Origin: Escherichia coli
GTDB taxonomy: Bacteria > Pseudomonadota > Gammaproteobacteria > Enterobacterales > Enterobacteriaceae
Assembly: GCF_013122565.1 (NCBI RefSeq)
Contig: NZ_CP053258.1
Reading direction: 5' to 3' (one strand)
Length of the DNA: 64,000 bases
In this document: positions 9,991-47,148 of the stretch, in pieces
Layout of the letters: every line of letters begins with the position of its first letter
Numbering within the stretch: position 1 is the stretch's first letter
The notes under the pieces: model-generated
Database searches by the model: none
The model's input: the letters and a program-made list of their open reading frames with translations, nothing else
Told to the model about the DNA's origin: nothing
Made by a program: the position numbers and the translations under genes

Positions 9991-11678
9991 AAATTGTTTA
10001 TACACCTGATCGATCCTGGAGAGAAATCCCACCAGCAAAACCAGAACTTGGTGATGTTTTATCTCTGAGCAGTAATAATTGGGATGACTATGGATATAAA
10101 ACTACTCTAAACGCAAAAATATACATTAAGAATCAATCTATTTCATTTGATTTTTCAATTAAATTATTAATTGAAAATATCGATAACACGGCAATAAAGC
10201 TAGATGAATTATGTAAAGATGGATGGGATGGAATATTCCCCATCCCTAATACTAACTATATAGCTCTTCCATCTGATATTGATTTTTATCAAATACTCAT
10301 ATCTAAAATAGGTGAGGAATCAACAGTCAATCTTCTGAATGATCTGAACGATGCAGGTTTCAATAAAAATGTTTACCATAATGAAATATCTAACAGACTC
10401 ATAGAACAAGATGCCTTTAAAACGTCATTACTCCGAGAAAGTGGAGCAAATAAAGCCTATCTAGACGGTTATCTGATATTCCAAAATATTCACGCAGAAA
10501 TAAGAAACTTTCAGTTAAATATTTTAACGAAAAAAGGAGGTGTAAATAAGATACCATTTAAATTTGAATCTAATTTATTGCCTTATGATATTAATGTTAT
10601 TATTGGCCCGAATGGGATTGGTAAATCTCATTGCCTGAAATCACTTGTTGAATATTGGTTGCAAATAGGAATGGGGGAACAACGATTACTTGAAAAGAAT
10701 AAGCATACTCCATTTGATGAACGACCTAACATAAGTAAGCTTGTTCTTGTTTCTTATAGCCCTTTTGAAGAGTTCAGCCTAGATCTAGAAAAAGACAATT
10801 TACAAGATAAAAAGGCATATCAATATTTTGGTTTCAGGCAAATGAGAGATAATGGGACAATTGGTATCAGTCGAAACTTACCAGCTTTAAATTCAAGTGA
10901 GTCATTACTTGAAATGATATCTGATGATAAGAAATACCAATTCATTGAAAATCGAATAAATAAGCTCAACTCTGTCGATTCTGCACTCAAATCTGCTATT
11001 AGCTATGATTATTGTGTTCTAAGATTATCTCCAGAAGATAACTCATCTTATCTCGGGAAAGATATTGTCATAATTGATGGCGAAAAATATCTCCCTGCAG
11101 TAAATATTGTAAAATGGGCTGATCATTTAGATTTAATAAGGGATTCTATACTACTCAATGATGGTGTAATCTTTGTTAAAGATGGGGAAATTGTAAATCT
11201 TAGTTCTGGCCAACGATTATTTGTATATATAGCTATTAATGTTGTCGGTGCAATGAAAGAAAATAGCTTAATTGTGATTGATGAACCTGAATTATTTTTA
11301 CATCCTAACCTTGAAATAGAATTCATTGGGCTACTAAAAAAATTACTTAAATCATTTCGCTCTAAAGCTATTCTAGCTACTCATTCCCTATCTATCACAC
11401 GTGAAGTACCGTCAAAATGTGTACATATATTCCGCTACAAGGATGACGAATTTGAAATAGTCCCCCCGCCATTTGAAACATTTGGCGGTAATGTTCAGAG
11501 AATTTCTTCTTATGTTTTCGGCGATAAATCGATCTCTAAGCCTTTTGATGAATGGCTTGAGATGCAGCTTCAAGCTATTAAAGATCCTGAAAAATTAATT
11601 GAAATGCTAAATGAAGAAATTAATGAAGAAATAATCATGAAAATCATGAGTTTAGGGAAAAAGTATCATGGTCACTAA
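9987..11678 (+). CDS. ABC/SMC-like ATPase with ~200-aa N-terminal extension (PtuA-like; candidate defence ATPase, 563 aa)
   Basis: Walker A GPNGIGKS (aa 207-214, nt ~10604-10627); ABC signature-like LSSGQR (aa 405-410); Walker B LIVIDEPELFLHP (aa 428-440); H-loop ATHS; start overlaps hsdS stop; AT-rich. Confidence 0.75.
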   Translation: MKIVYTPDRSWREIPPAKPELGDVLSLSSNNWDDYGYKTTLNAKIYIKNQSISFDFSIKLLIENIDNTAIKLDELCKDGWDGIFPIPNTNYIALPSDIDFYQILISKIGEESTVNLLNDLNDAGFNKNVYHNEISNRLIEQDAFKTSLLRESGANKAYLDGYLIFQNIHAEIRNFQLNILTKKGGVNKIPFKFESNLLPYDINVIIGPNGIGKSHCLKSLVEYWLQIGMGEQRLLEKNKHTPFDERPNISKLVLVSYSPFEEFSLDLEKDNLQDKKAYQYFGFRQMRDNGTIGISRNLPALNSSESLLEMISDDKKYQFIENRINKLNSVDSALKSAISYDYCVLRLSPEDNSSYLGKDIVIIDGEKYLPAVNIVKWADHLDLIRDSILLNDGVIFVKDGEIVNLSSGQRLFVYIAINVVGAMKENSLIVIDEPELFLHPNLEIEFIGLLKKLLKSFRSKAILATHSLSITREVPSKCVHIFRYKDDEFEIVPPPFETFGGNVQRISSYVFGDKSISKPFDEWLEMQLQAIKDPEKLIEMLNEEINEEIIMKIMSLGKKYHGH

Positions 11679-42338: not shown

Positions 42339-43994
42339 ATGACTAATCTTCCCCACTGGTGGCAAAACGGCGTTATCTACCAGATTTATCCAAAGAGTTT
42401 TCAGGACACCACGGGTAGCGGCACCGGCGATTTACGTGGCGTTATCCAACGCCTGGACTATCTGCATAAACTGGGCGTTGATGCCATCTGGCTAACCCCC
42501 TTTTATGTCTCTCCCCAGGTCGATAACGGTTACGACGTAGCGAACTATACGGCGATTGATCCCACCTACGGCACGCTGGACGATTTTGACGAACTGGTGA
42601 CGCAGGCAAAATCGCGCGGAATTCGTATCATTCTCGATATGGTGTTTAACCATACCTCTACCCAACATGCCTGGTTTCGCGAGGCGCTGAACAAAGAAAG
42701 CCCTTACCGCCAGTTTTATATCTGGCGCGATGGCGAACCAGAAACGCCACCGAACAACTGGCGTTCAAAATTTGGCGGTAGTGCGTGGCGCTGGCATGCG
42801 GAAAGCGAACAGTACTATTTGCATCTCTTTGCACCAGAACAGGCGGATCTCAACTGGGAGAATCCAGCGGTACGCGCAGAGCTGAAAAAAGTCTGTGAGT
42901 TCTGGGCCGATCGTGGGGTCGACGGGTTGCGCCTGGATGTGGTGAATCTGATCTCCAAAGACCCGCGTTTCCCTGAAGACCTGGACGGCGACGGGCGTCG
43001 CTTCTACACCGACGGGCCACGAGCACACGAGTTTTTGCACGAGATGAACCGCGATGTGTTTACGCCACGCGGGTTAATGACCGTAGGTGAAATGTCCTCC
43101 ACCAGCCTTGAGCATTGCCAGCGATACGCGGCTCTGACAGGCAGTGAATTGTCGATGACCTTTAATTTTCATCACCTGAAGGTCGATTATCCCGGTGGTG
43201 AAAAATGGACGCTGGCTAAACCTGACTTTGTGGCGTTGAAAACATTGTTCCGCCACTGGCAACAAGGAATGCACAACGTGGCATGGAATGCCTTGTTCTG
43301 GTGTAACCACGATCAGCCGCGCATTGTTTCTCGCTTTGGTGATGAAGGTGAATACCGCGTGCCTGCGGCAAAAATGCTGGCGATGGTGCTGCATGGCATG
43401 CAGGGAACGCCGTATATCTACCAGGGCGAAGAGATTGGCATGACCAACCCGCATTTCACGCGCATTACTGACTATCGCGACGTAGAGAGCCTCAATATGT
43501 TTGCCGAGCTGCGCAACGATGGTCGTGATGCCGACGAGTTATTGGCAATCCTCGCCAGTAAATCCCGTGACAACAGTCGCACGCCCATGCAATGGAGCAA
43601 CGGCGATAATGCCGGGTTTACGGCTGGCGAACCATGGATTAGCATGGGCGATAACTATCAACAAATCAACGTAGAAGCCGCGCTGGCCGATGAGTCCTCG
43701 GTGTTTTACACCTACCAAAAGTTAATCGCACTACGTAAGCAAGAAGCCGTTCTGACATGGGGCAATTACCAGGATCTGCTGCCAAACAGCCCTGTATTGT
43801 GGTGCTATCGCCGTGAATGGAAGGGGCAAACCTTGCTGGTCATTGCCAACCTTAGCCGTGAGATCCAACCCTGGCAGCCAGAGCAAATGCGCGGCAACTG
43901 GCAGCTTGTGATGCATAACTACGAAGAAGCCTCACCACAACCCTGTGCCATGACTTTACGGCCTTTTGAGGCTGTCTGGTGGTTACAGAAGTAA
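42339..43994 (+). CDS. treC: Trehalose-6-phosphate hydrolase
   Basis: Translation MTNLPHWWQNGVIYQIYPKSF... (GH13); 551 aa from ATG 42339; track ORF start 42192 overlaps treB and is rejected. Confidence 0.95.
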   Translation: MTNLPHWWQNGVIYQIYPKSFQDTTGSGTGDLRGVIQRLDYLHKLGVDAIWLTPFYVSPQVDNGYDVANYTAIDPTYGTLDDFDELVTQAKSRGIRIILDMVFNHTSTQHAWFREALNKESPYRQFYIWRDGEPETPPNNWRSKFGGSAWRWHAESEQYYLHLFAPEQADLNWENPAVRAELKKVCEFWADRGVDGLRLDVVNLISKDPRFPEDLDGDGRRFYTDGPRAHEFLHEMNRDVFTPRGLMTVGEMSSTSLEHCQRYAALTGSELSMTFNFHHLKVDYPGGEKWTLAKPDFVALKTLFRHWQQGMHNVAWNALFWCNHDQPRIVSRFGDEGEYRVPAAKMLAMVLHGMQGTPYIYQGEEIGMTNPHFTRITDYRDVESLNMFAELRNDGRDADELLAILASKSRDNSRTPMQWSNGDNAGFTAGEPWISMGDNYQQINVEAALADESSVFYTYQKLIALRKQEAVLTWGNYQDLLPNSPVLWCYRREWKGQTLLVIANLSREIQPWQPEQMRGNWQLVMHNYEEASPQPCAMTLRPFEAVWWLQK

Positions 43995-44006
43995 ATCTTC
44001 ACTAAG

Positions 44007-44038
44007 CCCCGGTAATGCCTGTCATTCCGGGGTTTTGT
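44007..44038 (+). terminator. Rho-independent terminator after treC
   Basis: ccccgg...ccgggg hairpin followed by ttttgt. Confidence 0.7.
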
Positions 44039-44387
44039 CTGTCAGCATGTTGTTTTTGTTGATTTTTCAACCAGCAAATTCATTAAAAAATTTACATATC
44101 GCTGTAGCGCCCGTCATCCGTACGCTCTGCTTTTTACTTTGAGCTACATCAAAAAAAGTTCAAACATCCTTGATGCAAAGCACTATATATAGACTTTAAA
44201 ATGCGTCCCAACCCAATATGTTGTATTAATCGACTATAATTGCTACTACAGCTCCCCACGAAAAAGGTGCGGCGTTGTGGATAAGCGGATGGCGATTGCG
44301 GAAAGCACCGGAAAACGAAACGAAAAAACCGGAAAACGCCTTTCACAATTTCTGTGGATAACCTGTTCTTAAAAATATGGAGCGATC

Positions 44388-46526
44388 ATGACACCGCATG
44401 TGATGAAACGAGACGGCTGCAAAGTGCCGTTTAAATCAGAGCGCATCAAAGAAGCAATTCTGCGTGCAGCTAAAGCAGCGGAAGTCGATGATGCCGATTA
44501 TTGCGCCACTGTTGCCGCGGTTGTCAGCGAGCAGATGCATGGCCGCAACCAGGTGGATATCAACGAGATCCAGACCGCAGTTGAAAACCAGCTGATGTCG
44601 GGTCCATACAAACAACTGGCTCGTGCTTACATCGAGTACCGTCACGATCGCGACATTGAACGTGAAAAACGCGGTCGCCTGAACCAGGAGATCCGTGGTC
44701 TGGTCGAGCAGACCAACGCCTCGTTACTCAACGAAAACGCCAACAAAGACAGCAAGGTGATTCCAACCCAGCGCGACCTGCTGGCCGGGATCGTGGCTAA
44801 ACACTATGCACGTCAGCACCTGCTGCCGCGTGACGTGGTGCAGGCACATGAGCGTGGCGATATTCACTATCACGATCTCGATTACTCGCCGTTCTTCCCG
44901 ATGTTCAACTGCATGTTGATCGACCTGAAAGGCATGCTGACCCAGGGCTTTAAAATGGGGAACGCCGAGATTGAACCGCCGAAGTCGATCTCTACGGCAA
45001 CCGCGGTAACTGCGCAGATTATTGCTCAGGTTGCCAGCCATATTTATGGCGGCACCACCATTAACCGTATCGATGAAGTGCTGGCACCGTTTGTCACCGC
45101 CAGCTACAACAAACATCGCAAGACCGCAGAAGAGTGGAACATCCCGGACGCCGAAGGCTACGCTAACTCTCGTACCATTAAAGAGTGCTACGATGCCTTC
45201 CAGTCGCTGGAGTACGAAGTAAACACTCTGCACACCGCCAACGGTCAGACGCCGTTTGTAACCTTTGGTTTTGGTCTGGGCACCAGCTGGGAGTCGCGCC
45301 TGATTCAGGAATCTATCCTGCGTAACCGTATCGCAGGCCTCGGTAAAAACCGTAAAACTGCGGTGTTTCCGAAACTGGTGTTTGCGATTCGCGATGGCCT
45401 GAACCATAAAAAAGGCGATCCGAACTACGACATCAAACAGCTGGCGCTGGAGTGCGCAAGCAAGCGCATGTATCCGGATATCCTGAACTACGATCAGGTA
45501 GTGAAAGTCACCGGTTCGTTTAAAACTCCGATGGGCTGCCGCAGCTTCCTCGGCGTGTGGGAAAATGAAAACGGCGAGCAGATCCACGATGGTCGTAACA
45601 ACCTCGGCGTGATCAGCCTGAACCTGCCGCGTATTGCTCTGGAAGCAAAAGGCGATGAAGCCACCTTCTGGAAGCTGCTGGATGAACGTCTGGTGCTGGC
45701 ACGTAAGGCGCTGATGACCCGTATCGCTCGTCTCGAAGGCGTGAAAGCGCGCGTGGCCCCGATCCTCTATATGGAAGGTGCTTGTGGCGTGCGTCTGAAT
45801 GCTGACGATGATGTTTCTGAAATCTTCAAAAACGGTCGTGCGTCTATTTCGCTGGGTTACATCGGCATCCACGAAACCATTAACGCGCTGTTCGGCGGCG
45901 AGCATGTTTACGACAACGAGCAGCTTCGCGCGAAAGGTATCGCCATTGTTGAACGTCTGCGTCAGGCAGTGGATCAGTGGAAAGAAGAAACGGGTTATGG
46001 TTTCAGTCTCTACAGCACGCCGAGTGAAAACCTGTGCGACCGCTTCTGCCGTCTCGATACTGCTGAGTTTGGCGTGGTGCCGGGCGTGACCGATAAAGGT
46101 TACTACACCAACAGTTTCCACCTCGATGTGGAGAAGAAGGTGAACCCGTACGACAAGATCGACTTTGAAGCGCCTTACCCGCCGCTGGCGAACGGTGGTT
46201 TCATTTGCTACGGCGAGTATCCAAACATTCAGCACAACCTGAAGGCGCTGGAAGATGTCTGGGATTACAGCTATCAGCATGTACCGTATTACGGCACCAA
46301 TACGCCGATCGATGAGTGCTACGAGTGTGGCTTTACCGGTGAGTTCGAGTGCACCAGCAAAGGCTTCACTTGCCCGAAATGTGGTAACCATGACGCCTCC
46401 CGTGTGTCGGTAACTCGCCGCGTGTGCGGATATTTAGGTAGCCCGGATGCACGTCCGTTTAACGCTGGTAAGCAGGAAGAAGTTAAGCGCCGCGTTAAAC
46501 ATTTGGGGAATGGGCAGATAGGTTAA
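44388..46526 (+). CDS. nrdD: Anaerobic ribonucleoside-triphosphate reductase
   Basis: 712 aa; C-terminal glycyl-radical region and zinc-ribbon CxxC...CxxC. Confidence 0.97.
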   Translation: MTPHVMKRDGCKVPFKSERIKEAILRAAKAAEVDDADYCATVAAVVSEQMHGRNQVDINEIQTAVENQLMSGPYKQLARAYIEYRHDRDIEREKRGRLNQEIRGLVEQTNASLLNENANKDSKVIPTQRDLLAGIVAKHYARQHLLPRDVVQAHERGDIHYHDLDYSPFFPMFNCMLIDLKGMLTQGFKMGNAEIEPPKSISTATAVTAQIIAQVASHIYGGTTINRIDEVLAPFVTASYNKHRKTAEEWNIPDAEGYANSRTIKECYDAFQSLEYEVNTLHTANGQTPFVTFGFGLGTSWESRLIQESILRNRIAGLGKNRKTAVFPKLVFAIRDGLNHKKGDPNYDIKQLALECASKRMYPDILNYDQVVKVTGSFKTPMGCRSFLGVWENENGEQIHDGRNNLGVISLNLPRIALEAKGDEATFWKLLDERLVLARKALMTRIARLEGVKARVAPILYMEGACGVRLNADDDVSEIFKNGRASISLGYIGIHETINALFGGEHVYDNEQLRAKGIAIVERLRQAVDQWKEETGYGFSLYSTPSENLCDRFCRLDTAEFGVVPGVTDKGYYTNSFHLDVEKKVNPYDKIDFEAPYPPLANGGFICYGEYPNIQHNLKALEDVWDYSYQHVPYYGTNTPIDECYECGFTGEFECTSKGFTCPKCGNHDASRVSVTRRVCGYLGSPDARPFNAGKQEEVKRRVKHLGNGQIG

Positions 46527-46683: not shown

Positions 46684-47148
46684 ATGAATTATCATCAGTA
46701 CTATCCTGTCGACATCGTCAACGGCCCCGGCACTCGCTGCACCCTGTTTGTCTCCGGGTGTGTTCATGAATGCCCCGGTTGCTATAACAAAAGCACATGG
46801 CGGGTAAATTCTGGTCAGCCATTTACCAAAGCAATGGAAGACCAGATCATTAACGATCTGAATGACACTCGTATCAAACGCCAGGGTATTTCCCTCTCCG
46901 GCGGCGATCCGCTGCATCCGCAAAACGTGCCGGATATTCTGAAACTGGTACAACGCATCCGCGCCGAGTGTCCGGGTAAAGACATCTGGGTGTGGACAGG
47001 CTATAAACTCGACGAACTCAACGCTGCGCAAATGCAGGTTGTTGATTTGATTAACGTGCTGGTCGACGGCAAATTTGTGCAGGATTTAAAAGACCCTTCC
47101 CTGATCTGGCGCGGCAGCAGCAATCAGGTGGTGCATCATTTGCGTTAA
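46684..47148 (+). CDS. nrdG: Anaerobic ribonucleotide reductase activating protein (radical SAM)
   Basis: 154 aa; cysteine cluster CTLFVSGCVHECPGC. Confidence 0.95.
   Translation: MNYHQYYPVDIVNGPGTRCTLFVSGCVHECPGCYNKSTWRVNSGQPFTKAMEDQIINDLNDTRIKRQGISLSGGDPLHPQNVPDILKLVQRIRAECPGKDIWVWTGYKLDELNAAQMQVVDLINVLVDGKFVQDLKDPSLIWRGSSNQVVHHLR

Follow-up and report, generated by a model that had tools for sequence, protein, structure and literature searches.

The closest described system is the nrdDG promoter of Escherichia coli K-12, for which binding of both NrdR and FNR has been published. The nrdDG promoter contains two NrdR boxes with a 15-bp spacer, and EcoNrdR in the presence of ATP plus dATP binds a 57-mer from it with a KD of 160 ± 37 nM (Bimai, Rozman Grinberg et al., FEBS J 2025, PMC12176259); with ATP alone, binding of EcoNrdR to the nrdDG probe was undetected (PMC12176259). 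The spacer optimum measured for EcoNrdR is 15–18 bp, that is, the box centers are an integer number of helical turns apart. In Salmonella Typhimurium LT2, mutation of either NrdR box strongly derepresses nrdDG.

FNR has two sites at the same promoter. The SAXS study of FNR–DNA (JBC 2023) described the complex on a 54-mer with both sites occupied, and mutagenesis of the sites has also been published. As quoted there from Roca et al. 2008, site 1 is centered at −33.5 and site 2 at −64.5. Site 2 is of high affinity and is reported to be essential for activation, and site 1 is auxiliary and weaker. An FNR ChIP-seq peak at nrdD was described by Myers 2013, with a motif, TTGATGTAGCTCAA, that is among the best-scoring ones of the table, and a supplementary expression table gives ratios of 0.36 for nrdD and 0.27 for nrdG. 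In addition, a DnaA ChIP-seq peak indicating in vivo occupancy has been reported at nrdD, for which tTTAAGAACAggTTATCCACAg is listed as a "double DnaA box" (PMC11317965).

NrdR and FNR sites between treC and nrdD

The window analyzed here is a stretch of E. coli DNA of 64,000 nucleotides (64 kb), in which treC, nrdD, and nrdG follow one another in this order. The intergenic region, 393 bp long, runs from the treC stop (43994) to the nrdD ATG (44388). The regulated gene, nrdD (44388–46526, + strand), is an ORF of 712 aa whose product is the anaerobic (class III) ribonucleoside-triphosphate reductase, and RefSeq names it nrdD in 5,425 genomes. The second gene of the operon, nrdG (46684–47148, + strand; 154-aa ORF), codes for the activating enzyme, and the K-12 annotation places it immediately 3' of nrdD. 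By megablast, the segment 43950–44450 is matched in 5,425 of 5,426 complete E. coli genomes, annotated treC / nrdD in every case, and the 111 bp at 44135–44245 show at least 99% identity in 5,007 of these 5,425. Near the upstream end of the intergenic region, a hairpin at 44001–44041 (−18.2 kcal/mol, z = −4.6) begins 7 nt past the treC stop codon and is followed by UUUUGU; it was missed by a simple terminator scan and is likely an intrinsic terminator insulating nrdDG from treBC.

The original prediction had drawn attention to a perfect 10-bp palindrome and a second, A/T-rich partial palindrome about 150–200 bp upstream of nrdD, and had proposed them as possible NrdR or FNR control sites. Both are where they were described. 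CTATATATAG, at 44183–44192, is a perfect 10-bp palindrome lying 205–196 bp 5' of the nrdD ATG, and CAATATGTTG, at 44214–44223, is an imperfect one with 8 of 10 positions self-complementary, 174–165 bp 5' of the ATG, so that the distances are close to those predicted. An inverted-repeat search returns none for these contiguous palindromes without a loop, and they were checked directly instead. The palindrome at 44183 is the sole perfect 10-bp one within the treC–nrdD intergenic region.

Each palindrome forms the core of an NrdR box. Box 1 (44180–44195, + strand; GCACTATATATAGACT) holds CTATATATAG and corresponds to positions 6–21 of the published NrdR probe, and box 2 (44211–44226, + strand; ACCCAATATGTTGTAT) holds CAATATGTTG and corresponds to positions 37–52. 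The boxes are located 162–208 bp 5' of nrdD, on both sides of a conserved −10 hexamer, with their centers 31 bp apart and a linker of 15 bp (44196–44210), which is the canonical spacing and falls inside the optimum of EcoNrdR. The segment 44175–44231 is identical, with 0 mismatches, to the published 57-bp nrdDG probe. We therefore consider it very probable (roughly 95%) that the palindromes are NrdR boxes 1 and 2 in the core nrdDG promoter, where inputs from NrdR, FNR, and DnaA converge. The proposal of NrdR control sites thus stands on the exact probe match, the 15-bp spacer, the matrix score and the conservation in Enterobacterales presented below, and the derepressed box mutants of Salmonella; no evidence contradicting the assignment to an NrdR- and FNR-controlled nrdDG promoter was found.

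The two FNR sites lie on the upstream side. FNR site 2 (44139–44152, + strand; TTGAGCTACATCAA) was located by consensus search; it matches TTGAT-N4-ATCAA at 9 of 10 positions, is centered at −64.5, and is the sequence of which the ChIP-seq motif TTGATGTAGCTCAA is the reverse complement. FNR site 1 (44170–44183, + strand; TTGATGCAAAGCAC), placed from the published probe and offsets, matches at 8 of 10 positions, is centered at −33.5, and overlaps NrdR box 1 by 4 bp (44180–44183). The published 54-bp FNR probe matches 44135–44188 with a single mismatch; this C-to-T change, at 44159, falls in the stretch separating the sites. Nowhere else in the window do two FNR-like sites stand 31 bp apart, and none of 300 shuffles yields such a pair.

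Promoter geometry, conservation and the nrdD leader

The FNR centers, at 44176.5 and 44145.5, allow the transcription start to be deduced by simple arithmetic: the offsets of −33.5 and −64.5, as they are quoted, place +1 at 44210 (+ strand; K-12 coordinate 4462838) and give a leader of 178 nt. Relative to this deduced start, box 1 occupies −30 to −15 and box 2 +2 to +17, and the hexamer TAAAAT at 44197–44202 (+ strand), in the linker between the boxes, occupies −13 to −8 and would serve as the −10 element. The deduced start is thus compatible with the proposed control sites, which come to lie over the core promoter. With these offsets, both FNR centers are off the canonical class I (near −61.5) and class II (near −41.5) positions. 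A site at −33.5 is an unusual position for FNR as an activator.

Genome-wide TSS supplements (Kim 2012, Ettwiller 2016, Conway 2014, Kroger 2012) gave no independent support for the nrdDG start site. A generic scan for sigma-70 promoters and terminators did not recover the nrdDG promoter and returned only a chance match on the minus strand (1 vs 0.8 expected); such a miss is expected because the promoter is activator-dependent and has no −35 element.

Conservation was examined in 108 species-representative loci, collected with a degenerate DNA pattern that encodes KRDGCKVPF, from the N-terminus of NrdD, of which 98 have upstream sequence long enough for analysis. An NrdR-box tandem of at least 19.7 bits is present in 96 of these 98 Enterobacterales species; the two exceptions are Ewingella, in which the boxes are visible in a slightly different register or spacing. 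The spacing of the boxes is 31 bp in 92 of the 98 species and 32 bp in the other 6. In the 85 regions of Enterobacteriaceae type, box 1 lies 197–220 bp from the ATG. An FNR-like site is found 41 bp 5' of box 1, the offset of FNR site 2, in 77 of the 85, and 10 bp 5' of box 1, the offset of FNR site 1, in 79 of the 85. The linker hexamer is kept in all 85 (TAAAAT in 64 and TAGAAT in 21).

A column-wise footprint built from 86 distinct sequences shows the same elements as islands of conservation: 87% for FNR site 2, 98% for FNR site 1, 90% for box 1, 96% for the −10 hexamer, 87% for box 2, and more than 99% for the DnaA boxes of the leader, against 58–61% elsewhere in the leader. The spacer between the FNR sites (44152–44169) is also conserved, with an A-tract (ATCAAAAAAA or ATCAATAAAA) and a block CAAACAT, which in many genera is a perfect 12-bp palindrome, CAAACATGTTTG, abutting FNR site 1; this spacer might be an alpha-CTD/UP-like contact or the site of another factor.

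In the more distant genera Pantoea, Tatumella, Limnobaculum, Pragia, Leminorella, and Affinibrenneria, the order of one FNR site, box 1, a −10-like hexamer, and box 2 is kept, and the single FNR site is recognizable in most of the six. In Pantoea (loci L019 and L028) and Tatumella (L024 and L051), only 6–12 nt separate the end of box 2 from the nrdD start, and DnaA boxes are absent. This short distance between box 2 and the ATG speaks for the linker −10 being the ancestral promoter, and it follows that the DnaA-box leader of about 180 nt is specific to a lineage, namely Enterobacteriaceae, with a variant form in Budviciaceae. In Budviciaceae and Affinibrenneria, the DnaA boxes come directly after NrdR box 2 and are differently arranged. 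By this footprint, the order of FNR site, NrdR box, −10, and NrdR box is ancient, and leaders with DnaA boxes are widespread.

Pattern search in the leader of the window yielded a perfect DnaA box, TTATCCACA, on the − strand at 44276–44284 (+67 to +75; column conservation 99.9%), and a double DnaA box on the same strand at 44353–44372, which consists of a second perfect TTATCCACA at 44353–44361 and an adjacent weak TTAAGAACA at 44364–44372. The latter is the published double box, tTTAAGAACAggTTATCCACAg. The two perfect boxes, 77 bp apart, compare with a chance expectation of 0.39 in 64 kb. Of the 85 Enterobacteriaceae species, 82 keep both without change, and the published DnaA peak at nrdD falls between the two boxes.

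A riboswitch or structured leader was also considered and is unsupported: the folding of the 178-nt leader RNA is not significant (z = −1.1), and an Rfam scan of 43950–44450 gave only chance matches below threshold, so that the leader holds no known RNA element. The middle of the leader is rich in purines and poorly conserved between genera (30–60% per column); an 11-bp direct repeat, ACCGGAAAACG, occurs there at 44307–44317 and 44328–44338, 21 bp apart.

Just 3' of NrdR box 2, a further block, TAATCGACTATAAT at 44227–44241, is conserved and contains the hexamer TATAAT at 44235–44240, which corresponds to +26 to +31 of the transcript as published. In Enterobacteriaceae, its T, A, A, and T are 90–100% conserved and the middle positions are variable, which is a −10-like signature; the variants found elsewhere are TATTAT, TACTAT, TACAAT, and TATCAT (TAYWAT-like). 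The presence of a conserved second −10-like hexamer means that the exact geometry of the promoter could be more complex than that published. We tentatively suggest, at rather low odds, that TAnnAT at 44235–44240 serves a second nrdDG promoter, so far unannotated, as its −10, or else is a promoter-proximal pause element of the leader that depends on sigma-70. The literature on the nrdDG promoter that we examined mentions neither at this position, and the hexamer is the only lead at this promoter that goes beyond the textbook.

The alternative that survives best carries this suggestion further and holds that transcription depends on a promoter other than the published one, with TATAAT at 44235–44240 as its −10 and a start near 44247, so that the operators are the same and their geometry is different. 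In such an arrangement, box 2 would sit over the −35 region, box 1 at −67 to −52, and the FNR sites at the class-I-like positions −70.5 and −101.5. The conservation of TAnnAT in Enterobacteriaceae speaks for a start near 44247, as do the center at −70.5, nearer to canonical class I than −33.5 is to class II, and the report that a construct ending at the published start site is "too weak". On the other side, the published mapping, as cited, puts the start immediately 3' of the FNR sites, and there is no −35-like hexamer 17 bp 5' of TATAAT. The linker hexamer, TAAAAT or TAGAAT, is invariably present in the 85 species, and in Pantoea and Tatumella, where box 2 ends so close to the ATG, only a linker −10 is possible. 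Weighing these points, we regard replacement of the published promoter by one starting near 44247 as improbable, and the −10 in the linker between the NrdR boxes is retained below.

Assignment of the palindromes to NrdR

That FNR acts at this promoter is clear, and its weaker site at 44170–44183 overlaps the first 4 bp of box 1, so it might be asked whether the palindromes themselves are FNR operators. The evidence is against such a reading, which we consider highly improbable. CTATATATAG and CAATATGTTG are unlike TTGAT-N4-ATCAA, no FNR-like site with two or fewer mismatches starts within 44184–44226, and the published FNR sites are 44139–44152 and 44170–44183, whereas the palindromes fit the NrdR matrix. 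The FNR part of the original prediction, which covered 44170–44245, therefore holds for the region, with site 1 (TTGAT) at the very start of that interval, and fails for the palindromes; the essential FNR site 2 lies just outside it.

The sole perfect FNR consensus in the window is elsewhere, at 10279–10292 (TTGATTTTTATCAA). The accessory segment around it is AT-rich, carries the annotation AAA family ATPase / type I restriction subunit S, and is present in just 63 of 5,426 complete E. coli genomes. The site is probably a chance match in AT-rich DNA.

The assignment to NrdR was examined with a 16-bp matrix derived from only four boxes, those of nrdAB and nrdHIEF (probe sequences from PMC12176259), with which the whole window was scanned. 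Box 2 scores 14.5 bits and ranks first, and box 1 scores 13.6 bits and ranks second, among 63,985 positions. As a tandem at 31-bp spacing they reach 28.1 bits, against 9.25 bits for the runner-up pair in the window, a score attained in none of 100 dinucleotide shuffles (shuffle maximum 16.2). The NrdR sites that had been predicted by eye are thus significant in a matrix scan. The score of box 1 by itself is reached in 19 of the 100 shuffles and is borderline, and it is for this reason the tandem, not the single box, that gives significance. Single NrdR-like boxes at 3321 (13.4 bits) and 18611 (11.5 bits) have no partner and were set aside as chance level.

A perfect 10-bp palindrome alone is not unusual: the window contains 58, compared with 62.5 expected. 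The notion that both palindromes arose by chance, or are generic AT-rich DNA (H-NS binding, core promoter elements), with no specific operator function, to which this chance rate, the shuffles matching a single box, and the reported binding of H-NS to nrdDG (PMC12176259) lend something, has next to no probability and is already refuted by the published NrdR binding to the identical sequence, along with the derepression of box mutants, a 31-bp tandem never reached in shuffles, and boxes conserved in about 100 species in which the flanking leader is not.

With the palindromes read as NrdR boxes, the following mechanism may be proposed. In the presence of ATP plus dATP, an NrdR tetramer binds both boxes, as published on the identical sequence; the box centers are 31 bp, or about three helical turns, apart, and both boxes are therefore on the same face of the DNA. 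Since boxes at −30 to −15 and +2 to +17 bracket the −10, bound NrdR would be expected to block RNA polymerase at high dATP, an occlusion suggested by this geometry and by the derepressed box mutants. Under anoxia, the [4Fe-4S] FNR dimer occupies site 2 (−64.5, essential) and site 1 (−33.5, auxiliary), and is published as required for anaerobic induction. Site 1 shares 4 bp with box 1, and FNR and NrdR therefore probably compete there. Promoter occlusion and competition between activator and repressor have likewise been put forward for Salmonella (PMC2892513). DnaA, which by published ChIP-seq occupies the two perfect boxes of the 178-nt leader in vivo, is a candidate third input.

Comparison with known nrd promoters

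As a discovery, the region offers little that is new: a textbook regulatory region has been re-identified from raw sequence. It couples the synthesis of the anaerobic ribonucleotide reductase to oxygen through FNR, to the dATP/ATP pool through NrdR, and to the replication initiator DnaA, and its use lies in a clean comparative promoter footprint over about 100 Enterobacterales species.

The region does not just resemble the K-12 nrdDG promoter but is that promoter, a system already described. No difference from K-12 is seen in the four operators, the −10, the spacing, or the DnaA boxes of the leader, and the comparison with the characterized K-12 promoter, with matches of 57/57 to the NrdR probe and 53/54 to the FNR probe, bears out the original prediction. 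Compared with K-12 MG1655, the intergenic region has five SNPs (44001, 44020, 44046, 44159, and 44345), none within any box; neither the C-to-T change at 44159 nor the four others are expected to make a functional difference.

Salmonella enterica subsp. arizonae and diarizonae have the same architecture, with box 1 at −208, a spacing of 31 bp, FNR sites offset from box 1 by −41 and −10 as found here, and two DnaA boxes. The Salmonella nrdDG boxes carry a few substitutions relative to those of the window (TCACTACATATAGACT), and FNR site 1 is nearer to the consensus in Salmonella (TTGATGCAAATCAC, 9/10) than it is here.

Within E. coli, the operators of nrdHIEF and nrdAB likewise consist of 16-bp palindromic boxes with a central AT and a 15-bp linker, likewise overlap the RNA polymerase binding site, and are bound with similar KD values of 113–160 nM (PMC12176259). 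The likeness is close enough that a matrix made from the nrdHIEF and nrdAB boxes returns those of nrdDG as its top matches. The three promoters differ in their co-regulators, which are DnaA, Fis, and IciA at nrdAB, Fur and IscR at nrdHIEF, and FNR at nrdDG, and only at nrdDG, compared with nrdAB and nrdHIEF, does an activator site overlap NrdR box 1.
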